Source: Candidatus Bathyarchaeota archaeon (GTDB taxonomy: Archaea > Thermoproteota > Bathyarchaeia > Bathyarchaeales > DTEX01). From it: 61,283 nt of DNA. The stretch is taken from the NCBI GenBank assembly GCA_018396975.1, contig JAGTQA010000014.1, positions 1 to 61,283 on the forward strand, written 5' to 3'. Positions within the stretch are counted from its first letter, which is position 1, and each line of letters starts with the position of its first letter. A model generated the notes under the pieces. It worked only from the letters and a program-made list of their open reading frames with translations, was not told where the DNA came from and ran no database searches. The position numbers and the translations under genes were made by a program. Below, one piece after another: positions 5,873 through 52,195 of this stretch.

Positions 5873-6607
5873 CTAGCGCCACATCACATTTTCCTCTAAT
5901 ATTTTCTCGATTTCCTTCGCGAAGTCGGTTTTTAGGAGCGCATCTACATCCCCGAGGGCATTCTCAACCCTCCCATCGAAGTGTATTTCGCCTAGGAACC
6001 TCTCGCCTAGGGCCTCAACCTCACGCCTGATGTGGGCTGAATCTTCCATCTTCATATTCTCTATGACGCCAATTATCTCCGCTCCCAGATCCCTAAGTAA
6101 TGTTAGGAGCTTCCTCACGGTCTCAAAAGCCATCCTTGATGGTGATGTTATAATTAGGAATCTGGCCCCCCTAATATACTTCAGCACATCGAGCATTAGG
6201 TCGCCTATGCCGGGCGGCATATCAATTATTAGCATGTCTAGGCTGCCCCATCGGGTCACCGCCAGCATCTCTATGAAGGCATTGGATATCTCCGGTCCCC
6301 TAAGTGGGGATGTTCTGTCGCCGAGGTAAAATATGAGCGACATATATTTTATGCCATGAACCTCTGGCGGAACCACACCCTTATCCTCGCTCGGCTGAAG
6401 GCCTCTAACTCCTAGGGTAACATGAGTTGTTGGGCTCGTGAAGTCTAGGTCTAAGAGGCCGACTCTGAATCCCTTACGTGCTAGGATCAGCGCCAGCGTG
6501 GAAGCTATTAGGCTCTTTCCAACCCCACCCTTACCGCTCGAAACAACTATTATCTGCCCTATACTCTTAAGCCTCTCCCCTATAATAGTGAGTCTTGGAT
6601 CGAGCAT
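5873..6607 (-). CDS. hypB: Mrp/MinD-family P-loop ATPase, probable HypB-type nickel-insertion partner
   Basis: SSGKGGVGKS deviant Walker A. Starts 4 nt after the hypA stop on the same strand. Thermococcales use an Mrp/MinD-type HypB. Confidence 0.65.
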   Translation of the reverse strand: MLDPRLTIIGERLKSIGQIIVVSSGKGGVGKSLIASTLALILARKGFRVGLLDLDFTSPTTHVTLGVRGLQPSEDKGVVPPEVHGIKYMSLIFYLGDRTSPLRGPEISNAFIEMLAVTRWGSLDMLIIDMPPGIGDLMLDVLKYIRGARFLIITSPSRMAFETVRKLLTLLRDLGAEIIGVIENMKMEDSAHIRREVEALGERFLGEIHFDGRVENALGDVDALLKTDFAKEIEKILEENVMWR

Positions 6608-6611
6608 AGGC

Positions 6612-7010
6612 CTATTTTACGCCCCTAACACTCGATATCCAAACGCCCCTACCGCTGGATATATCAAAGTCTGGGCTCCCACACCTTGGACATCTAAAGT
6701 ATGCGTGTGCAACCTCCGGAATAAAATGTATCGACTCCTTAACATCTTCGGATACCTTAGCCTCCCTAAAGAGCCATTTATTCCCACATACCCTACACTT
6801 AAACCTCGCCCTAACAGTCCTCATAGTGAACTTGGCATTGGAGAGCTTCCCGGACTTCAGTTGGGAGAGGGCGAAGCCAAGAACCTCCCTATCAACCTGC
6901 TGTAGCTCCCCGATCCTCAGCCCTACCTCCCTAACCTCCTTCAGCCCCTCCCTCTCAGCGATCTGGGAGACCGCCGATATTATGGCTTCGGCCAGAGCCC
7001 ATTCATGCAT
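6612..7010 (-). CDS. hypA: Hydrogenase nickel incorporation protein HypA
   Basis: MHEWALAEAII N-terminus (MHE motif) and two CxxC pairs (CRVCG, CPRCG). Confidence 0.88.
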   Translation of the reverse strand: MHEWALAEAIISAVSQIAEREGLKEVREVGLRIGELQQVDREVLGFALSQLKSGKLSNAKFTMRTVRARFKCRVCGNKWLFREAKVSEDVKESIHFIPEVAHAYFRCPRCGSPDFDISSGRGVWISSVRGVK

Positions 7011-7078
7011 AGGAAAGTTTAGATTGAACCACGAATTTAAGAGTATCTGTAGAGCTTAAAATTCTGGGTGTTATAATC

Positions 7079-8152
7079 ATGGCGGCCGATAGCGGATATA
7101 TAACCATGCTGTATGGTGCTGGCGGCTCAGTCATGCATGAGTTCATCAAAAAATATATTCTGAGGTTCTTTGGAGATTTGGAGTCTGGGAACTTTGAGGT
7201 TCCGCTTAAGGCCCTAGACGATGCAGCGGTTTTCGGGAACATAGTCTTGAAGAGCGACTCGCACGTTGTTAAGCCTATATTCTTTCCGGGAGGGGATATT
7301 GGCCGCCTAGCTGTCTCTGGAACAGTTAATGATATCGCGGTTATGGGCGCCGAACCAGTAGCCCTCACATGTGGGCTAATACTTGAGGAGGGGCTGCCCC
7401 TATCGGATCTAGAGCGCATACTCGAGAGCATGCGTGCGACATGTCTAGAGGCGAATGTCCCAGTAATCACAGGAGACACCAAGGTTGTTGAGAGGAGCGG
7501 CTTAGGCGGATGCGTAATAAACACCTCTGGAATAGGTATTAGAACAGAGGCCTTAGAGAGGAACATTGGTGTGGTAAGGAGGTTTAGGGCGGATTTTAGG
7601 GGCAGATGGCTCCTCGACTCAAACCTTAGGACTGGTGACAAAATAATATTGTCTGGAACAGTAGGCGACCATGGGATTGCCATCCTATCGGCGCAGGAGG
7701 GGCTAATGTTTAGTGGAGAGATAAAGTCTGATGTTAGACCGCTTAACCGCCTAATACAGCGTCTGCTCGGCGAAGTCGGTGGGGTGGTCTCCATGAAGGA
7801 TCCAACTCGGGGTGGACTGGCCGACGCCCTAAACGAGTTTAGTGAGAAGTCCGGTGTTGGCATACTCATCTATGAGGATAGGATTCCAGTTAGGGAGCCG
7901 GTTAGGGCTGCCTGTGAGATGCTTGGTTTAGACCCCCTAGAAATTGGTAACGAGGGTAAGGTTGTTATGGGCGTTGTGAGGGAGAAGGCTGAGGAGGTGC
8001 TGGAGTTTCTTAGGGGGACCCCTGAGGGCAGAGACGCTGAGATAATTGGTGAGGTTACAGATAGATTTGTTGGGGTTGCGATGGAGACAGTAATAGGCGG
8101 AAGAAGAATAATTCCTAGACCGCTGGGAGATCCAATTCCAAGGATATGCTAG
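7079..8152 (+). CDS. hypE: Hydrogenase maturation protein HypE
   Basis: PurM-like fold motifs and the canonical C-terminal PRIC. Confidence 0.88.
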   Translation: MAADSGYITMLYGAGGSVMHEFIKKYILRFFGDLESGNFEVPLKALDDAAVFGNIVLKSDSHVVKPIFFPGGDIGRLAVSGTVNDIAVMGAEPVALTCGLILEEGLPLSDLERILESMRATCLEANVPVITGDTKVVERSGLGGCVINTSGIGIRTEALERNIGVVRRFRADFRGRWLLDSNLRTGDKIILSGTVGDHGIAILSAQEGLMFSGEIKSDVRPLNRLIQRLLGEVGGVVSMKDPTRGGLADALNEFSEKSGVGILIYEDRIPVREPVRAACEMLGLDPLEIGNEGKVVMGVVREKAEEVLEFLRGTPEGRDAEIIGEVTDRFVGVAMETVIGGRRIIPRPLGDPIPRIC

Positions 8153-8163
8153 CCTCGGCCCAA

Positions 8164-9921
8164 TTACTTCTCATACCAAGCCTTCCTAATAGTCTTCGGC
8201 CTTAGATCAGTTATGCTCTCTAGGGCCTCTAGGAGTATCTTAGTCTTCTCGAGCTTCGGTTCGGGCAGATTATTCCCATAATTATCGTATCCCACATAGA
8301 CTATCTCCGGCGAAATATTATATATCCAGTCTATGAACTCCTCATCAAAGTCTAAAATTGGCTCTATGACAACGGCCTTCCACATCCAACCCAACCTAAT
8401 CATGGCCTCATACCGCTCTCTGGGGGTTGGGGCCCTACTCAGCTTATAGTCCCTATTGGTCTCTAGGGTTACGCCCAAAACAACATTATCGCTCAATTTA
8501 TCCTCAAACTCAAGATACCTCTTCGGGTTCTTAGTTAGGAAGAGAAAATTAACTTTAGGCCTAGACCTAACATATCTCAAAACCTTCTCGATCCACTCTC
8601 CCGGAACCCAAGAGTTACCACACCAGACAGGCCTACCATTTCTTCTAACATAAATTATGTGAGTGGGGACTTCAAGGCAGTAGACGTAACCCTCATAATT
8701 CTCATATCCAATGTAACATTTGGTTCCATCACTCAGCTTATTGGCAACCCTTATGCTGCGGGCATAGTCGACCTCGGGCATTCTATTTCTCCCAGTAATT
8801 ACGACCTCATAGCAATCGCGCCCCTTTGCCGCATTCCCGCCAATGTATCCACTCCTTTCTTTACCTCCGGCTTTCACTATAGCCACATATCCACATTTTA
8901 GCGCTATCTCCTGAATGTCGTCGGCAAGCCTCTTGCTAGTCGTGTAGGCCCTTTTGCAGGTTCCTGATTCTCTTTGGCCGCTGCCACTAATATAGGCTTC
9001 AAGCATTATACTCAATAGTCTCTTCGAGAGGTTTTTAAATTCAGTGGGAATATATCTTCTGTCTTCATGATCCAGCTTTTGAAGGAATTCCGCAAGCTCC
9101 TGATCCCCATTAATCTCGATCCCATCTTCATGAACACAAATATTTTTTCCTCTATTTTCAGCAACCGTTCTCATGGCCTCAAGGGTGTCTTTGTAGTGGG
9201 GACTCGTATTCTTTTGGGAAACTCGTATTCGCGGCTCACCATCCACTAATAAGACTTTACCTCTAGCCAAGTAGTATCCAAGGAACTTCATAAAAGCGTC
9301 AATTGGCACACCTGCGAACTTATCTATCTCACAGCCCTCCCAGTTGGGAAAGTCCCTCCGAAACCTCAATCTCTTCTCAAGGCAATCCTCAGCTCTAACT
9401 AGGCTAAAGTCCCTGAACTCTAATCCCTGCCCCCACCCTTCACGTGATGCATCTTCCAACGCAACATAGAGATTGTGGTCTGGAGTCACCAGCAAATCTA
9501 TGGAGTTCGACTTTATTCTGATCATCCTACCCTCATACCAATATTTCACGATCCTAGCGGGCTTACAATAGATAACTCTATTATTAGATGGGTCTAGGCA
9601 AGCCACTAGGTCGTCATAAGTAACCTCACTAAACCTCTTCCATCCACCATAAGTCAATACTTCGGTCTCTTCATCATAACAACCCCACATATCACCCATG
9701 TCTGAAACGAAAACAAACCTTCCATCTGGAAACTTCTGCCTAAGTCTCCATTCGGCAAAAGCCGGATTAAAGGCATGGGTCTTATATGGTTCAACACCCA
9801 TGGAGGCGAGTCTCCTAGCATAATTTCTAGCCCAGCAGTAGGAGCACATATGTAGGCAGCCAGTTATAGGATTCCACGAATCCGTTATCTCACCAAACAC
9901 CCTTCTTCTCAATATACCCAT
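8164..9921 (-). CDS. DUF5131 / phage Gp37-Gp68-like three-Cys protein interrupted by an intein
   Basis: Exteins: WNPITGCLHMCSYCWA (CX3CX2C), FVFVSDMGDMWG | SWVPGEWIEKV...FLFLTKNPKRY. The 356-aa insert carries intein blocks. Confidence 0.75.
   Translation of the reverse strand: MGILRRRVFGEITDSWNPITGCLHMCSYCWARNYARRLASMGVEPYKTHAFNPAFAEWRLRQKFPDGRFVFVSDMGDMWGCYDEETEVLTYGGWKRFSEVTYDDLVACLDPSNNRVIYCKPARIVKYWYEGRMIRIKSNSIDLLVTPDHNLYVALEDASREGWGQGLEFRDFSLVRAEDCLEKRLRFRRDFPNWEGCEIDKFAGVPIDAFMKFLGYYLARGKVLLVDGEPRIRVSQKNTSPHYKDTLEAMRTVAENRGKNICVHEDGIEINGDQELAEFLQKLDHEDRRYIPTEFKNLSKRLLSIMLEAYISGSGQRESGTCKRAYTTSKRLADDIQEIALKCGYVAIVKAGGKERSGYIGGNAAKGRDCYEVVITGRNRMPEVDYARSIRVANKLSDGTKCYIGYENYEGYVYCLEVPTHIIYVRRNGRPVWCGNSWVPGEWIEKVLRYVRSRPKVNFLFLTKNPKRYLEFEDKLSDNVVLGVTLETNRDYKLSRAPTPRERYEAMIRLGWMWKAVVIEPILDFDEEFIDWIYNISPEIVYVGYDNYGNNLPEPKLEKTKILLEALESITDLRPKTIRKAWYEK
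8614..9681 (-). mobile_element. Full-size intein (356 aa) with LAGLIDADG-type homing endonuclease domain
   Basis: Cys1 (TGT at 9681-9679) in CYDEETEVLTYGGW (block A). TPDH (block B). LGYYLARGKV and LEAYISGSG (LAGLIDADG-like). C-terminal ...VWCGN with Asn (AAC at 8616-8614), followed by +1 Ser. Confidence 0.8.
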
Positions 9922-10040
9922 TACCCTTCAATATCTCTAAGGAAAATTAGTAGCTGAGTTTCTTTTTAATCTGCCGATCCCACCAATACCCATTTTCTAC
10001 GCCTGTTAACCTTAATATCGGTTTTCTAGGATCTTTCCGC

Positions 10041-10078
10041 CCTCCTAGAGAGGCTATCCCGAAAGATAGGGAGGTATC
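10041..10078 (+). repeat. Bipartite intergenic motif, copy A
   Basis: ...GAGAGGCTA-TCCCGAA-AGATAGGGAGGTATC. Both blocks are identical in copies B and C. Confidence 0.7.
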
Positions 10079-10103
10079 TTAGGCCTATTTTCCAGATATA
10101 TCC

Positions 10104-11579
10104 ATGCATATTTTTCCGGTGATAACTTTATTCCCCACGCCTCACCCATTTCTCTGGGGCTTGATTTCCGTGGCAGCGGAATTTAATCCCCTAGAGGAAT
10201 ACTATTCGAGTGAGACTGTCAGGAGTGAGATTGCGGAGTATTGTAGGGGTAGGTGGGTGGCCATTGAGGGTGGCGCCTTAGGCAGCAGAGTCTTCCTAAG
10301 GTATTGGAGGGATGGCAGACCGTTAAGCGTCAGCAGCCCACAGGATGTTTGGGAGCTCCTAAGGCACTTTAGGGGCTTAAGCCCAAGGGCCATTTATGGT
10401 TCAATCAACATATACAAGAGCATATCCAGCAGGACGAGCATAGAGGACCCATCGAATATAGCCTACGCCTCACCAATATGGGACATTGATGGTGAGCTAA
10501 ACCGGTGGAGGGAGGTCATTGAGGTCGCTAGGATAATAGTTGAGGAGATTGAGAGGCTGGGCATAGCTAAATCGGTATTTATTAAGTGGAGCGGTGAGGG
10601 CGCCCATATCCACATACATGAAAGATGCTTCTCAAGAGAGGTCTTAGCAAAATATAATCCGCTGGACATAGCATATTCCCTAGTAGATCTGGTTCTAGAG
10701 AGATGCAAGGAAAAGATACTGGATATAATTTCGAGGTCTAGTAGCATTAAGGTTGAGAATGAAATAGATCTTAAGAGGGTCTTCACGGCACCACTCTCGC
10801 TGCATAGGAGGAGAAACCTATGCTGCGTATGCTTCAAACCTAACGAGCTAGATATCTTCGAGATTGAGTGGGCAAATCCGAAAAACTTTAAGCATAACAG
10901 CGGGTGGAAAGCCTATGTTGAGGGTGAGGGGGACCAAGCAGCCATAGAAGCCATTAAGGCCGTGGGTGGATATAGGGGCTGGGTCAGCACATCAGCCAAC
11001 CAGATAAGAACTGTCATATCGGCCCAAGCAGCTGGCGTTGGAATGGAGACTAAAGATATGGGAGGGAGAATAGGGCGCTTCCAAGTAATGGGGCTACTAC
11101 AAGCGGCCAGATACTACCTATTAACGGGAGATATGGAGAGGGCAAAGTCCTTCGGACTGAATAGGGCAATCTTCTACGCATGGGCTAAGAGGCATGGCAG
11201 AGAAATATCCTCTAGATCCACTAGGAGGATGCTGGATATGGGGGATAAGGGCGAATTAAGAGCCGGCCTAGAGGGTGAGAAGCCAGTCCAAGTTGGAGAT
11301 GAAGTGGCATTCGCATCTAGGGATGGATGGTTCACGATAGGCGGCCAAATACAGAAGCCCGAAGACTATGATAGGCAGATAGCCGCTCCAATCGAGAGCA
11401 TAGTAGGCTATGAGAGAGCATGGCAGGCTGCAATAGAATATTTAAAGGGCTTCAGCAGGGAAACCCTACTCAACCAACAGAAATTCTTTAAGCAGGTTTA
11501 TGAGCCCATAAGAGATAGATTCATGGAGATAATTCTAAACCCGAGGGGTCTAAGAAGAGACCTAACGAGATGGTTCTAG
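10104..11579 (+). CDS. Archaeo-eukaryotic primase (PriS-like) catalytic subunit with C-terminal extension
   Basis: AEP motifs: I IWDIDGE (D127/D129), II WSGEGAHIHIH, III EIDLKRVFTAPLSLH. N-terminus is PriS-like (EEYYSSE...RWVAIEG). True start may be internal, since the first ~25 aa look non-native. Confidence 0.7.
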   Translation: MHIFPVITLFPTPHPFLWGLISVAAEFNPLEEYYSSETVRSEIAEYCRGRWVAIEGGALGSRVFLRYWRDGRPLSVSSPQDVWELLRHFRGLSPRAIYGSINIYKSISSRTSIEDPSNIAYASPIWDIDGELNRWREVIEVARIIVEEIERLGIAKSVFIKWSGEGAHIHIHERCFSREVLAKYNPLDIAYSLVDLVLERCKEKILDIISRSSSIKVENEIDLKRVFTAPLSLHRRRNLCCVCFKPNELDIFEIEWANPKNFKHNSGWKAYVEGEGDQAAIEAIKAVGGYRGWVSTSANQIRTVISAQAAGVGMETKDMGGRIGRFQVMGLLQAARYYLLTGDMERAKSFGLNRAIFYAWAKRHGREISSRSTRRMLDMGDKGELRAGLEGEKPVQVGDEVAFASRDGWFTIGGQIQKPEDYDRQIAAPIESIVGYERAWQAAIEYLKGFSRETLLNQQKFFKQVYEPIRDRFMEIILNPRGLRRDLTRWF

Positions 11580-11603
11580 CATAGGGCGAATATCTCATGC
11601 CAG

Positions 11604-12710
11604 TTAGGGCTTAGGCTGAACCCTCCCATAATGCTGCCTAGTCATAGCCCATATCCTACATGTCCCCTCTACACTAACCATGCATGAGCCGATAGGCTTC
11701 TGCGGCGTGCAAGCCTTCATGAAGAGCGGGCACTCTATAGGCTTAATCTTACCTATTATGACGAGGTGGCATTGGCATCCGGGCGGAATATCCCTCCCAG
11801 ATCTAATCCTAACATTATGTCTCTCATGGGCATCATGCCTTAAATACTCGTCCCTAAGCGCTAGCTTCGAGTCCGGTATCCTCCCAAGCCCACGCCAATC
11901 TCCACTAACAACATTAAACGCCCTCTTCATGAGATCTTTAGCCTTGGGATTCCCATCCCGCCTAACGGCCCTCCCATACTCATTCTCTAGAGCCGCCACT
12001 CGATCCTTAATCTGCCTTAAGGCCATATATATTGCTAGGAGAACATCTATGGGCTCGAAGCCGGCAACTATCGTCGGCATCCTATAGATCCTAGGAAAAA
12101 TCTCGTAGGGTTCTAAGCCTATAATTGTGCTCACGTGGCCGGGAGCAATAAAGGCATCTATTTGAAGGTCCCCTATACCCAGCATAAGCTCCATCGCTGG
12201 TGGAATAAGCCTATGCGAGACCAGAAAGCTGAGGTTTCTAGGGGGCCCCTTAATTATTTCGGCCGCTGTCGAGGGCGCCGTTGTCTCAAAACCTATCGCG
12301 AAGAAGACAAACTCCCTATCCGGCTCCCTCTCAGCCATCCTAACAGCATCCATAACACTATAGACCACTCTGACATCGGCACCCCTAGCCCTAGCATGTA
12401 AAGGTGACATGCTTGAGCCGGGAACGCGAACTACATCACCGAAGCATGTGAGCACCGCACCCTTAAGTGCAACATCAACGGCCTCATCAACCTCAGCTGC
12501 TGGCACAATACAGACTGGGCATCCCGGGCCAGCTATAACATCAACGTTCTCCGGAAGTAGGCTTCTTATCCCATAATGTGATATGGTCCACTCATGGGTC
12601 CCGCAGACATGACAAATCTTTACGCTATCCCGTTTGGGTGCAGTCTCCTGAATCTTCTCAACGATTCTCTTGGCGAGTTTAGGATCCCTAAATGTTTCAT
12701 ACAAGTTCAT
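11604..12710 (-). CDS. hypD: Hydrogenase maturation protein HypD
   Basis: CHVCGTHEW, GPGCPVC, GFETT and PGHVS motifs. Confidence 0.9.
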   Translation of the reverse strand: MNLYETFRDPKLAKRIVEKIQETAPKRDSVKICHVCGTHEWTISHYGIRSLLPENVDVIAGPGCPVCIVPAAEVDEAVDVALKGAVLTCFGDVVRVPGSSMSPLHARARGADVRVVYSVMDAVRMAEREPDREFVFFAIGFETTAPSTAAEIIKGPPRNLSFLVSHRLIPPAMELMLGIGDLQIDAFIAPGHVSTIIGLEPYEIFPRIYRMPTIVAGFEPIDVLLAIYMALRQIKDRVAALENEYGRAVRRDGNPKAKDLMKRAFNVVSGDWRGLGRIPDSKLALRDEYLRHDAHERHNVRIRSGRDIPPGCQCHLVIIGKIKPIECPLFMKACTPQKPIGSCMVSVEGTCRIWAMTRQHYGRVQPKP

Positions 12711-13076: not shown

Positions 13077-14762
13077 CTAGAGATCTATGTTTACTCTAGC
13101 TTTTCTTCTGAATTGGCTCTCATATATCTTGCGCACTGTCTCTATTGTATCCGCCTCCTCCGGACTCTTGTCATCGCGTATCCTAGTTATTCTGGCGAAT
13201 CTCAGCGCCATTCCAGACTCATATTTTGGGCTCATTTGGATCTCGTTGTAGGCGACCTCGACAACTATCTTTGGCTGAACTATCACCATGCTACCCTCCT
13301 CCCTAATCGCTATCTTCTTTAGGCGCTCCGTCATCTCGGCTATCTCATCATCGGTTAAACCTTTAAATGTCTTCCCGATAACCGTGAATTTTTCCCCATC
13401 CCTAGCGGCCAAGTAATAGTCTGAGAGCCAATTATGCCTCCTTCCATAACCATATTCTGCGGCGACGATGACGAGATCTAAGGGCTCTAAAACCTCCTTT
13501 ATCTTAAACCAGTGCTTACCCCTAATCCCCGGAGTATATGGGCTATCCAGCCTCTTGGCCATCAAGCCCTCATGCCCCTCACTAACAGCAGCCCTCAGGA
13601 AAGATTCGGCCTCCTCCATACTACTGGCCACCATCTGCTTGGTTAAAGGTATGCTGCCAGCAACCTCTCCGAGCCTCCTGCGCCGCTCAACATATGGGGT
13701 TTTAATTAGGCTCTCCCCATCAACATAGAGGAGGTCGAATAGGTATAGTTCGACTGGAATCTCTTCAACTGCCTCATCGACACTATGAATCCTCTTGAAT
13801 CTACGCATTAGGTGCTGGAATGGCATGGGCTTACCATCCTCACCAACGGCTATCACCTCACCCTCCAGAATCGCCTCCCTAGCCCTAACCTCACCCCGAA
13901 TCAGGCTGACGACTTCTGGGAGGCTTCTCGTAACATCTGTGAGTCTGCGACTATATATTTTTACATCCCCATTTGATACGTGAATCTGTATTCTGGCGCC
14001 ATCAAGCTTATACTCTAGCGCGGTTCTACCACCATGCTCCTCAAAAACCTCCCTCAGATCCGTAGCCATCTGGGCGAGCATGGGCTTGATAGGCCTAAAG
14101 ACCCTAAAGCCCAGATTTAGAATTCCATCCCTACCATACTTCTTGCATAAGTATGCCACCTCACCCACATCACCAGTCAACATGGACGCGAGCTGAACGT
14201 CCTTAAGTGGAATAGAGAAGGCCCTTGAGACTGCTGCCTCCATCAAACCCTCCTGGAATCCAGTTCTCATCTCGCCAATAATTATCTTAACTAGGTATTT
14301 GGCCTCTAGGGGTGAGGCGCGGCTGAGTAATGTTTCTATGAGCCTCTCCTTCCTATCCCTAGAGCCCTGTCCCTTAGACTCGGCTATATGCTCAAACATC
14401 CTCCTAACCTCAAGTATTGTGAGGGGTCTCTCAATTAGAGTGGACTGCCTGCCCGGGGAGCGCCTCTCAAAGACTATTTTTGTGGCAGCCCCAACATCAC
14501 CAGTGCTCCTGAAGGCTGAATAAAAATCCCTCCAATCGATCCCTGAGAGGCGCCTAATTACATTGCTTAGGGTTGCCCAGCTGACATCCAAGGTTCTAGG
14601 GTCATATTTTGGGAATGCTCTGCCAAGAATCATCGATGTAGCCGGTTCAATCTCGTTCTCATCTAGACCCCTCAGAAAATCCGCAACAGCCTCAATCATT
14701 AAGTTACGCTTTGTTGTCTTCTCAAGCCTCTCACAGAGCTCAACAAGCGATTTAAATTCCAC
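13077..14762 (-). CDS. lig: ATP-dependent DNA ligase (paralog A)
   Basis: Motif I EYKLDGARIQIH. EGLMAKRLDSPYTPG.RGKHWFKIK. LDLVIVAAEYGYGRR. C-terminal OB motif VI LRFARITRIRDDKSPEEADT. Confidence 0.9.
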   Translation of the reverse strand: MEFKSLVELCERLEKTTKRNLMIEAVADFLRGLDENEIEPATSMILGRAFPKYDPRTLDVSWATLSNVIRRLSGIDWRDFYSAFRSTGDVGAATKIVFERRSPGRQSTLIERPLTILEVRRMFEHIAESKGQGSRDRKERLIETLLSRASPLEAKYLVKIIIGEMRTGFQEGLMEAAVSRAFSIPLKDVQLASMLTGDVGEVAYLCKKYGRDGILNLGFRVFRPIKPMLAQMATDLREVFEEHGGRTALEYKLDGARIQIHVSNGDVKIYSRRLTDVTRSLPEVVSLIRGEVRAREAILEGEVIAVGEDGKPMPFQHLMRRFKRIHSVDEAVEEIPVELYLFDLLYVDGESLIKTPYVERRRRLGEVAGSIPLTKQMVASSMEEAESFLRAAVSEGHEGLMAKRLDSPYTPGIRGKHWFKIKEVLEPLDLVIVAAEYGYGRRHNWLSDYYLAARDGEKFTVIGKTFKGLTDDEIAEMTERLKKIAIREEGSMVIVQPKIVVEVAYNEIQMSPKYESGMALRFARITRIRDDKSPEEADTIETVRKIYESQFRRKARVNIDL

Positions 14763-29160: not shown

Positions 29161-29200
29161 GGAGGGAGGGAGAGGCTAGCTGAAAAGATAGGGAGGTATC
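29161..29200 (+). repeat. Bipartite intergenic motif, copy B
   Basis: GGAGGGAGG-GAGAGGCTA-GCTGAAA-AGATAGGGAGGTATC. Confidence 0.7.
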
Positions 29201-37973: not shown

Positions 37974-38011
37974 GATACCTCCCTATCTCTCGAATAGCCT
38001 CTCCCTCCTAG
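37974..38011 (-). repeat. Bipartite intergenic motif, copy C (reverse orientation)
   Basis: Reverse complement reads CTAGGAGG-GAGAGGCTA-TTCGAG-AGATAGGGAGGTATC. Confidence 0.7.
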
Positions 38012-50413: not shown

Positions 50414-52195
50414 TCATTGTTCGGATTCTATCTTCTTTAGTTGTCTCCTATACATTTCTACTATTTCGTCCACTCTTGTCGCGTCTTCTGGAGATTTGTC
50501 CGTGCGGTATCTTCCTGTAAACCTTGGGAACCTTATTGCTAGCCCGCTCCCCTTCCTTATTAGGTCTCTTGCGCATGTGTGGATTGGGCTTAGGGTTATC
50601 TCCGCGCCAATAACTTCTATAACCATTTTGGGTAAGAACCATACATCTGCCTCAAGGTTTGAGTTCACTCTTGGATGCCTATGCCCTATCCTATATGGCT
50701 CAAGCATCTTTGGTAGGCTCTGCAGATCTTCATCCGTGAAGCCTGATCCACACTTACATATTGTTTCGAATGTGTCATTTTCATGGTTGTAGGCTGCTAG
50801 AAGTAGTGCACCATATGTTCCAGCCCTCCTACCCCTCCCATAGAATGCTCCAACAACAACTAGGTCAACTGTGTCAATCATCTCGCTCTTATAATCGCGC
50901 TTATATTTTATCCAGAGCCAGCCTCTCGCACCAGCCTGATAAACCGCATCGCCGCTTAATGATTTGCAGACAAGCCCCTCACATCCGGCCTCAACAGCCT
51001 CCTCAAAGAATCTCTCTAGATCTTCGACATTATCCACTATCAGATACTTCGCTAACTGAAATCTATCGCTCTGCTCGATTATTTTCTCAAGAATCTCGTG
51101 CCTAACTGGATAGGGATCCAGCGTCAGATCTCTTCCATCAACATAAAGGACGTCGAATGCGAACAGCGAGACTGGATACTCACTTGCCGCCTTAGCAATG
51201 TCATATTTGCGTCTCCTATGCATGAGCTCTTGGAAGGGCATCATCTCACCAGTATCTAGGTTTACGGCGACGCACTCGGCTTCTATAATCGCTTCCTTCG
51301 CCTTTACATGCGTCCTGATCAACTCAACAGCATCTGGATACTGGCTTGTTATATTCTCAAGCCTCCTAGAGAACAATATTATTTTATCCTTGTCCTTGTG
51401 AGCTTGTATTCGCTCCCCATCATACTTGTATTCGGCTATGCACTTTCCGCCCAACTTCTCGAGTATTTCGTTTGGCGAGGATAGTCTCTCAGCCAGCATT
51501 GGCCTAATAGGATTCCCAACTGATACTCTAAAGTTTTTGAGGGCTTCAATTCCACCCTCGGCAACGGCTTTCGCAACCTTACCTAGATCGGAGGATATGT
51601 TATATGCCCTCTCGATTATGTCCCTAGCGTTCTTTCCTCCACCGTAAGCTATCGCTAGGGCGTCTAGAACGGTCATGTCAGCTATTCCAAGGCGTAGCTT
51701 CCCGGTAACGGTTCTAATTATATATTTCGCATCCTTAGGCGATGCATCAGCCAGAAGCCCAGCCAAAAGATTCACCTTTAAGTCCACAGAGCCCTCTCCA
51801 GACGCCTTCGCTATTTTATCAAGCGTCTGATAAACCCTCTCAACAGTTAATGGCTTCCGGAAAAATGATACTTGACGCCTCTTCTCAAGAAAATTCTGCG
51901 CGGTCTCTCCTAAATCTCCAGTCCTTGCAAGATCCTCATCTATCTCGCTCTCTTTACGCCCAGATGCCTTGGCAAGAGCCTTTATCGCAAGTCTCTCCGC
52001 AACACCAATCTCTATACCCATAAAGTCGGGATAAAGCTTCCCCTGAGTTAAATAAACGACTTTATCAATGATCTCCTTAGGTGTTTTCCTGAAGAAGTCA
52101 ACTAGGTAATCGGTCATTTCAAGCCTCTTAGTTGTGCTCTCAATCCTCTCATATGCTTCAGTGACCAGCGAGTAGTCCACCATGAAATCCCCCAA
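50414..52195 (-). CDS. lig: ATP-dependent DNA ligase (paralog B)
   Basis: Motif I EYKYDGERIQAH. EGLVCKSL...WLWIKYK. VDLVVVGAFYGRGRR. Motif VI AIRFPRFTGRYRTDKSPEDAT. Confidence 0.92.
   Translation of the reverse strand: MGDFMVDYSLVTEAYERIESTTKRLEMTDYLVDFFRKTPKEIIDKVVYLTQGKLYPDFMGIEIGVAERLAIKALAKASGRKESEIDEDLARTGDLGETAQNFLEKRRQVSFFRKPLTVERVYQTLDKIAKASGEGSVDLKVNLLAGLLADASPKDAKYIIRTVTGKLRLGIADMTVLDALAIAYGGGKNARDIIERAYNISSDLGKVAKAVAEGGIEALKNFRVSVGNPIRPMLAERLSSPNEILEKLGGKCIAEYKYDGERIQAHKDKDKIILFSRRLENITSQYPDAVELIRTHVKAKEAIIEAECVAVNLDTGEMMPFQELMHRRRKYDIAKAASEYPVSLFAFDVLYVDGRDLTLDPYPVRHEILEKIIEQSDRFQLAKYLIVDNVEDLERFFEEAVEAGCEGLVCKSLSGDAVYQAGARGWLWIKYKRDYKSEMIDTVDLVVVGAFYGRGRRAGTYGALLLAAYNHENDTFETICKCGSGFTDEDLQSLPKMLEPYRIGHRHPRVNSNLEADVWFLPKMVIEVIGAEITLSPIHTCARDLIRKGSGLAIRFPRFTGRYRTDKSPEDATRVDEIVEMYRRQLKKIESEQ

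Follow-up and report, generated by a model that had tools for sequence, protein, structure and literature searches.

A divergent primase gene in a small archaeal genome

The window, that is, the whole stretch of DNA analysed here, comprises 61,283 nucleotides of a Candidatus Bathyarchaeota archaeon (contig JAGTQA010000014.1, positions 1 to 61,283, of the 1.10-Mb, 92.8% complete assembly GCA_018396975.1). Its forward strand carries, at 10104..11579, a gene for an archaeo-eukaryotic primase (AEP)-type protein that is very probably an accessory cellular primase-polymerase (Prim-Pol) of a new family. The gene is a third, very divergent AEP paralogue in a small genome that also encodes a canonical PriS-PriL primase. 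It belongs to the long subfamily of an unnamed AEP family of TACK archaea (Thaumarchaeota, Aigarchaeota, Crenarchaeota and Korarchaeota), with some Asgard members, in which the catalytic core is fused to a C-terminal domain without detectable structural relative in PDB or BFVD.

As first read, the open reading frame (ORF) is the longest that begins at an ATG and runs for 491 uninterrupted codons plus stop; a near-identical cluster representative (P0001; 98% identity) is likewise 491 aa. Alignments of relatives point to a shorter product. The first 22 codons (MHIFPVITLFPTPHPFLWGLIS) are unconserved and hydrophobic, and homologues of 449-484 aa begin at the alignment position of a GTG at 10170, so the real product is probably a 469-aa protein encoded at 10170..11579 (+). 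Residue numbers below follow the 491-codon reading unless otherwise stated. The first-pass annotation of this DNA, made from the letters alone, had raised the concern that a frameshift or erroneous fusion might have created the gene; such an artefact is ruled out by more than 600 homologues that are colinear over the full length, with the complete architecture in hundreds of independent assemblies.

The catalytic motifs of the superfamily are present and in order. Motif I (WDIDG; 10479..10493 (+), residues 126-130) provides the metal-binding DxD of D127 and D129; motif II (WSGEGAHIH; 10587..10613 (+), residues 162-170) has the form sGxGxH and includes H168; and motif III with the nucleotide-binding strand (ENEIDLKRVFTAPLSLH; 10755..10805 (+), residues 218-234) is placed by alignments and translation and contributes D222, R225 and H234. 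All nine of D127, D129, S163, G164, G166, H168, D222, R225 and H234 are invariant in an alignment of 19 sequences, and the same nine are invariant in an alignment of 60 except D222, which is nearly so. The DxD, sGxGxH and hD motifs recognised at first reading are therefore borne out by conservation across relatives. Between D129 and S163 lie 33 residues without a single Cys or His, close to the 35 or so first reported, and AlphaFold models this spacer as one helix and one strand, in agreement with the earlier claim that the zinc (Zn) stem of archaeal PriS is missing.

PriS is usually encoded once per genome, often in an operon with priL. The canonical pair of this genome lies on contig C55, where priL (367 aa; PF04104, 129.6 bits) is followed immediately by priS (423 aa; PF01896, 44.6 bits; TIGR00335, 172 bits). 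Roughly 90 residues separate motifs I and II of this PriS and contain CNKQH, CRVC, CPRC and CEIC, a full Zn stem. The priL gene upstream of it is the sole PF04104 match of the genome, in keeping with the observation that no priL accompanies the window gene. The window AEP itself falls well below the thresholds of the primase models (PF01896, 10.9 vs 26.8 bits; TIGR00335, 12.4 vs 143.5), and BLASTP aligns it with the two other AEPs of the genome over motif cores only. That it is not the housekeeping PriS, as had been suspected, is upheld by the genome search; this identity is ruled out by the canonical operon elsewhere together with the patchy distribution of the family.

Relative to archaeal PriS (PF01896/TIGR00335), the window protein is similar in its AEP fold, in the order of motifs I-III, in its alignment with Pyrococcus PriS and in being archaeal and chromosomal. 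Unlike archaeal PriS, it scores below the family thresholds, lacks the Zn stem, is unpaired with PriL, coexists with a canonical PriS, and carries both an unrelated C-terminal domain of ~170 residues and a tail resembling a PCNA-interacting peptide (PIP).

Two further observations concern the other primase loci. Contig C48 (L002:1120-1905) encodes a 261-aa PriS-like AEP (PF01896, 29.3 bits; TIGR00335, 75 bits, below cut-off) in which the Cys/His segment between motifs I and II is only vestigial, and its gene is flanked by S-adenosylhomocysteine-hydrolase-like and inositol-monophosphatase-like genes. We considered it as a short form of the new family and rejected it, as its BLASTP similarity is at motif level only and it is PriS-like by Pfam. 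Downstream of the C55 priS lies an ORF of 183 aa that looks like a GINS subunit by eye only, no search having been made.

Structure of the catalytic domain

The catalytic domain (10170..10973 (+)) has the AEP fold with conserved catalytic residues and no Zn stem. It was modelled within the whole protein using AlphaFold2 and a 60-sequence alignment, and its predicted local distance difference test (pLDDT) values are mostly above 93. The whole model has a mean pLDDT of 89.5 and a predicted template modelling (pTM) score of 0.66, with low confidence at residues 274-298 and 357-366 (469-aa numbering). A Foldseek search of the Protein Data Bank (PDB) returned 177 matches, 45 of them at E<=1e-3, and the 50 best listed are all AEPs with probabilities of 0.99-1.0. 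Foremost among them is Prim-PolC of M. smegmatis (E 2.5e-6; target-normalised template modelling score 0.55; root-mean-square deviation 4.7 over ~305 columns), followed by LigD polymerase domains (LigD-Pol) and the CRISPR-associated Prim-Pol (CAPP), and further on by PriS of P. abyssi, P. furiosus and S. solfataricus and by human Pri1; the probability is 1.0 for Prim-PolC, LigD-Pol, CAPP, PriS and Pri1 alike. When the family profile was compared with PDB sequences, the best match was Pyrococcus PriS (E 0.015-0.02) with motifs I-III aligned, and the Zn knuckle of P. furiosus PriS fell opposite a gap in the profile. The domain is thus an AEP that stands at roughly equal distance from PriS and from the repair Prim-Pols.

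The best structural neighbours, namely mycobacterial Prim-PolC (5op0/6sa0), LigD-Pol and the Methanocella non-homologous end joining (NHEJ) polymerase (5dmu), resemble the window protein in lacking a Zn stem. The window protein differs from Prim-PolC and LigD-Pol in that sequence identity is only 11-14%, scores remain below the thresholds of the repair-AEP models (PF21686, LigD_Prim-Pol, 11.2 vs 27.4 bits; TIGR02778, 11.3 vs 214.7), the genome has no Ku, and its link to a ligase is not general.

An autonomous C-terminal domain

Beyond the catalytic domain, a length-variable linker of ~30 aa (10974..11072 (+)) is modelled with low confidence (pLDDT <50-67) and leads into a long two-helix hairpin (GRFQVMxLLQAARYY...AKSFGLNRAIFYAWAKR; 11073..11240 (+)). 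Rich in Arg, Lys and aromatic residues, this hairpin is extremely conserved; it is the most conserved stretch of the whole protein and is kept in stand-alone copies of the domain. A variable basic loop, modelled with low confidence, follows at 11241..11276 (+), and the remainder (11277..11552 (+); GDExAF..GWFxIG..Q.P.DYDRQIA...YE.AW..A.EYL...LL.QQ.FF..VY.P.RD.F), at a pLDDT of 95-98, folds into a beta-meander of four strands and a bundle whose six helices are short. The first-pass annotation had described an apparently alpha-helical, Cys-free extension. Residues 291-491 indeed contain no Cys and one His; the helical description stands only in part, given the beta-meander in the model. As there is no Cys, the domain would hold neither an iron-sulfur (Fe-S) cluster nor Zn.

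To the limit of the tools used, the domain has no detectable relative among the solved structures or viral predicted structures that were searched. Modelled separately (residues 314-491; 85 sequences), it reached a pLDDT of 86.3 and a pTM of 0.81. Foldseek with this model retrieved no PDB chain at E<1 (best E 1.9) and nothing significant from BFVD (best E 0.46). The domain profile found nothing relevant in PDB sequences or Pfam and no PHROG, and hhalign against the PriL of the same genome gave a probability of 0.2%. The PDB contains structures of PriX, PriL and the pRN1 helix bundle. The suggestion that the extension might be a fused PriX-, PriL- or PriCT-like module is unsupported, because nothing significant emerged from these structure, profile and hhalign searches, and we reject it.

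The general arrangement is nonetheless reminiscent of the PriL C-terminal Fe-S domain (PriL-CTD), Sulfolobus PriX, the helix bundle of pRN1 ORF904 and PriCT-1/2, each a largely helical module that is flexibly attached to or associated with an AEP core, whether fused or separate. Unlike these, the window domain (residues 324-483) matches no known fold or profile, contains a beta-meander and occurs in genomes without a cognate AEP. It also differs from Prim-PolC's C-terminal extension, a helix and loop of ~40 residues packed on the core, in being an autonomous domain of 170 residues.

As a module the C-terminal region is autonomous, and genes that encode it alone also exist. The family comprises AEP-only paralogues of ~285-310 aa, which often share a genome with the long form; forms of ~400-420 aa with a different tail; and, at unlinked loci, C-terminal domains of 150-290 aa on their own. 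The domain is also fused to other AEP cores that are more like LigD-Pol. In a tree of catalytic domains only, the long forms make up one clade (Shimodaira-Hasegawa-like approximate likelihood ratio test, 95), and the fusion of AEP and C-terminal domain therefore arose once.

Some stand-alone copies deserve mention. One, of 158 aa, sits in an apparent defence island of a 270-kb metagenome contig (NODE_6; L104:6001-6477), with an AAA_15/AAA_21 ATPase on one side and an 835-aa N6_N4 methyltransferase, an AAA_13 ATPase, an HATPase_c_4 protein and a ResIII/SWI2_SNF2 helicase on the other. Another adjoins EF-2 (L107), and one cluster of stand-alone domains is labelled Nitrososphaerales.

Distribution and phylogeny of the family

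A search of 5.8 billion proteins returned 613 homologues at E<=1e-3, of which the best 120 share 47-98% identity with the window protein, measure 447-491 aa and cover at least 90% of the query, save one fragment of 332 aa. None of these 120 bears a Pfam domain, and their source names read "hypothetical protein" throughout, with the exception of one JGI entry, "DNA primase catalytic subunit". Scanned exhaustively with HMMER, 1.84 billion cluster representatives yielded 254 matches, and a scan of one genome per prokaryotic species identified 422 carrier genomes. The carriers bear the labels Bathyarchaeia, Nezhaarchaeales, Methanomethylicia, Culexarchaeia, Korarchaeia, Thermofilaceae, Desulfurococcaceae, Brockarchaeota and Aig-/Geothermarchaeota and, among the Asgard archaea, Baldr-, Odin-, Njord- and Asgardarchaeum. 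Cultured carriers are also among them, namely Pyrodictium delaneyi (Pyrde_0798) and Staphylothermus hellenicus (Shell_0810), and in each of these the annotation reads "hypothetical protein". Within Thermoproteota, a family member (E<=1e-10) is present in 170 of 401 sampled genomes and 77 of 158 genera, with the full-length form in ~86, and some species lack the long form that others of the same genus possess.

In a maximum-likelihood tree of 80 full-length members, taxon labels change 11 times, against 17.2 in shuffled trees (none of 200 shuffles as low), and the gene tree largely follows taxonomy. The window AEP is placed beside "Bathyarchaeota" bins from the Jinze hot spring, then Nezhaarchaeales. 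The Asgard copies (L027, L029, L030, L036 and L041) do not form a sister group and are nested in a clade with Thermofilaceae and Culexarchaeia; this nesting within TACK clades suggests either horizontal transfer among thermophiles or mis-binning.

The AEP/Prim-Pol kind of enzyme is well known. Pfam, NCBIfam, PHROGs and RefSeq contain no annotation of the family, its subfamily structure, the C-terminal domain or the PIP-like tails, and no Pfam, NCBIfam or PHROG family covers the window protein above threshold. Full-text literature searches and a reading of PMC5862659, PMC3914693, PMC3984812, PMC4158269 and bioRxiv 10.1101/2025.10.19.683342 turned up no account of the family; an earlier mention may exist in Iyer et al. 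2005 or in arCOG notes.

A putative PCNA-docking tail

The protein ends in RRDLTRWF-COOH (11553..11576 (+)), a putative PCNA-docking peptide by its likeness to the tails of Fen1 and RFC-L. It fits the PIP-type pattern [Q]xx[LIM]xx[FWY][FWYL] at a terminus. Fen1 of the same genome ends in KRTLEAWF-COOH, the same pattern, and the C-terminus of archaeal FEN-1 is where its PCNA-interacting peptide lies. In RFC-L, which is also encoded in the window, GIARWL is found at ten residues from the C-terminus. Canonical or near-canonical PIP tails of relatives include QATLDELF, QLTLDQLF, KTLLDFF, GLFKWF and GLDRWL. In 21 of 78 long forms (27%), the last 16 residues include the pattern [LIMF]xx[FW][FWLI]; among control ORFs of the same loci, the count is 33 of 747 (4.4%). 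The Fisher p of 1e-9 overstates the enrichment, given that the members of the family depend on one another. Paralogues made up of the AEP alone have a terminal basic run and then PLDxxIxx[WFY]L, as do some stand-alone C-terminal domains.

Genomic neighbourhood and a second ligase

Two ATP-dependent DNA ligases are encoded in the window. Ligase A (13077..14762 (-)), the candidate partner, is a second ligase whose best models are PRK03180/LigA_Halo and which is not of the canonical Lig1 type; ligase B (50414-52195) is the canonical dnl1/Lig1 type (dnl1, 576 bits). Ligase A lies 1.5 kb from the AEP gene on the opposite strand, with hypD between them. In Nezhaarchaeales, orthologues of ligase A directly adjoin the AEP gene on its downstream side and share its strand in L017, L021 and L022; in L019 the ligase is farther off. 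For three genomes of genus g95, the AEP-ligase gaps measure 133-139 bp. Kor1, a metagenome-assembled genome labelled Korarchaeia (L056), has a more distant ligase (33% identity) ~2.5 kb upstream of the AEP. Across genomes, a ligase-A-type gene occurs in 20 of 21 with the long AEP, compared with 12 of 20 of the same order without the family, a suggestive co-occurrence in which phylogeny is not corrected for. Ligase-A-type genes are widespread in the order, even where the AEP family is missing.

The neighbourhoods of 80 related loci (±10 kb; 2,083 ORFs; all-vs-all clustering) consist, where sampled, of ordinary metabolic and informational chromosomal genes. A conserved operon partner was sought among these ORFs and none was found; the clusters found in 32 and in 9 loci consist of ORFs that shadow the AEP gene itself in antisense.

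In the window, the AEP gene also lies near hydrogenase-maturation genes (5873-12710; the set across the family is hypA, Mrp-type hypB, hypD, hypE and hypF). Such genes occur within 10 kb of the AEP in 10 of 80 loci from about six or seven distant lineages (L012, L014, L015, L038, L044, L052, L060, L070, L075 and L076), and also in Pyrodictium delaneyi (L111). We treat the proximity as residual synteny, because order, distance and strand vary; a weak functional link may also account for it.

Proposed function and alternative explanations

The distribution of the family is chromosomal and non-essential, beside a canonical primase. On balance, we lean towards a PCNA-recruited primase-polymerase that would serve repair or damage tolerance and not act as the replicative primase. 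Through the tail RRDLTRWF, the enzyme would bind to PCNA at a fork, gap or nick. The AEP domain would then add nucleoside or deoxynucleoside triphosphates as directed by the template, with two metals held by D127/D129/D222, and the C-terminal domain, on its flexible linker of ~30 residues, would hold the template and/or the initiating nucleotide, as PriL-CTD, PriX and the pRN1 bundle do; alternatively, it might dock a partner. The final nick would be sealed by a ligase, probably ligase A, in analogy to the Ku-independent gap-repair pair of Prim-PolC and LigC in mycobacteria. Prim-PolC is operonic with LigC, fills short gaps and is independent of Ku (PMC5663958). Similarly, the window protein is an accessory, non-replicative AEP that some lineages encode directly 5' of a second ATP-dependent ligase. 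The genome (92.8% complete) contains no match to Ku (PF02735) at E<=1, so we reject classical NHEJ.

Several observations weigh against a repair polymerase of this design. The window tail lacks the canonical Gln, and more than half of all long forms have no PIP-like tail. Outside one order, the ligase adjoins the AEP gene only in scattered cases (no ligase is present in the AEP neighbourhood of 75 of 80 loci), and the co-occurrence may be phylogenetic, since the ligase is also common where the AEP is absent. No genuine neighbour is common to more than 10 of the 80 loci. The arrangement of the two domains is uncertain at a pTM of 0.66. Stand-alone C-terminal domains occur in genomes without any AEP of the family, for which reason the domain may serve something other than this enzyme. 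Finally, LigD-Pol and Prim-PolC have no tethered helper domain, which argues for true priming over simple gap filling.

The last point leads to the foremost rival, that the protein is a second primase that re-primes past lesions in the manner of eukaryotic PrimPol, its domain supplying the site for the initiating nucleotide and template, with no dedicated ligase. Flexibly tethered helper domains are typical of priming AEPs (PriL-CTD, PriX, the pRN1 helix bundle and the Zn finger of PrimPol). In addition, the Arg/Lys-rich hairpin is extremely conserved, a PCNA-type tail would put the enzyme at forks, and adjacency to a ligase is rare. Like PrimPol and other damage-tolerance Prim-Pols, the window protein is an AEP that the cell has in addition to its replicative primase, equipped with an accessory region at the C-terminus and partner-docking peptides, and a role at stalled forks is plausible; unlike PrimPol, it has no UL52-type Zn finger, its sequence relationship is limited to the AEP motifs, and its docking motif is PCNA-type and not RPA-type. 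Against re-priming, the domain is unlike any known module for the initiating nucleotide, many genomes have just one of the two, domain or AEP, repair polymerases are the top structural neighbours, and the ligase co-occurs in 20 of 21 genomes. We consider this explanation rather unlikely. Re-priming is favoured by the tethered helper domain, and gap repair by the structural neighbours and the link to the ligase; the two are not exclusive.

It is improbable that the protein serves the replicative primase as an alternative or auxiliary catalytic subunit, a housekeeping enzyme that works with PriL or whose own domain replaces it. Such a subunit would be consistent with Pyrococcus PriS as the best PDB sequence match of the family profile (E 0.015), with an N-terminal "YY" segment that is loosely PriS-like, and with the broad and largely vertical inheritance of the family. 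Opposed to these are the full canonical priL-priS operon in the same genome, the restriction of the family to just 170 of 401 genomes of the phylum (~86 for the long form), same-genus species that lack the long form, scores far below the PriS model thresholds, the missing Zn stem and the absence of linkage to PriL.

The first-pass annotation had also raised the possibility of a mobile-element prim-pol; as a plasmid or virus replication initiator, it would be either resident or domesticated. Archaeal mobile elements do account for many divergent, Zn-less AEPs (PMC5862659), a DUF5131/phage Gp37-like gene with an intein lies next to the window gene and is transcribed divergently from it, and the nesting of Asgard copies in TACK clades suggests some horizontal transfer. 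The family is not associated with viruses or plasmids: no relative was found in 2.9 million IMG/VR contigs, 72,556 PLSDB plasmids or 50,697 INPHARED phage records, and no PHROG matches. Furthermore, no helicase domain is fused to the window AEP, no tRNA lies within 25 kb of its gene, and no integrase shows up in the Pfam labels of the genes sampled around the AEP in nine relatives, the window itself not having been searched for one. GC content is unremarkable, the neighbours are core metabolic and informational genes, and the tree is largely taxonomic. We regard a mobile-element origin as ruled out by these database and neighbourhood searches, with very little probability left to it.

An equally small probability attaches to a nucleotidyl-transferase outside replication and repair, tied to hydrogenase maturation or other metabolism, in favour of which hyp genes lie no more than 10 kb away in the window, in P. 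delaneyi and in 10 of 80 loci (~6 lineages), and against which stand their varying order, distance and strand without an operon, the 70 of 80 loci with no nearby hyp gene, catalytic motifs of the polymerising-AEP type, a PCNA-type tail that is hard to square with a metabolic role, and the fact that we know of no precedent.

Returning to the PCNA-recruited primase-polymerase, a broader proposal can be put forward tentatively. The long, short and stand-alone forms might together represent an undescribed PCNA-coupled primase-polymerase system that dates to early in TACK, in which the C-terminal module would be a new, Fe-S/Zn-free "second site" for the initiating nucleotide and template, acting in cis or in trans, and which would provide, with the second ligase, Ku-independent gap or break repair. 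We find this possible but rather unlikely.

Gap and break repair in archaea is poorly understood, and most archaea, to our knowledge, lack Ku and LigD. It was not until 2025 that the Sulfolobus replicative primase was implicated in the repair of breaks (PMC12019639). A third AEP that is conserved and intact in hundreds of TACK and Asgard genomes constitutes a clonable candidate for a missing repair or damage-tolerance polymerase, a concrete one because it is conserved and intact, has a clamp-type tail, a ligase link and a helper domain without detectable structural relative in PDB or BFVD, and is carried by cultured hyperthermophiles. With its C-terminal domain, one can test in what way AEPs may initiate or position substrates when the known Fe-S or Zn modules are missing. 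The family has so far been invisible to annotation, and defining it would improve the annotation of many archaeal genomes.

Minor observations

A 40-nt motif (GAGAGGCTA..GAAAGATAGGGAGGTATC) occurs at 10041-10078, about 90 nt upstream of the probable AEP start. Other copies in the window are at 29161-29200 (+) and 37974-38011 (-), one ~385 nt 5' of an Nnr/YjeF-like gene and one ~385 nt 5' of an adenylate kinase gene. A repair regulon marked by this motif is unsupported, the three downstream genes having no obvious common function.

One metagenomic protein (P0186; 401 aa) fuses an FkbM-type methyltransferase (PF05050, 50.9 bits) to a core of the AEP family (query residues 125-294). Finally, the S. 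hellenicus orthologue (L095:1450-2931) has a conserved N-terminus that contains no ATG, GTG or TTG. Its GenBank entry (ADI31923; 478 aa) starts at an ATA codon, and its RefSeq entry (WP_245521894; 402 aa) begins at an internal TTG and thereby loses part of the catalytic domain.

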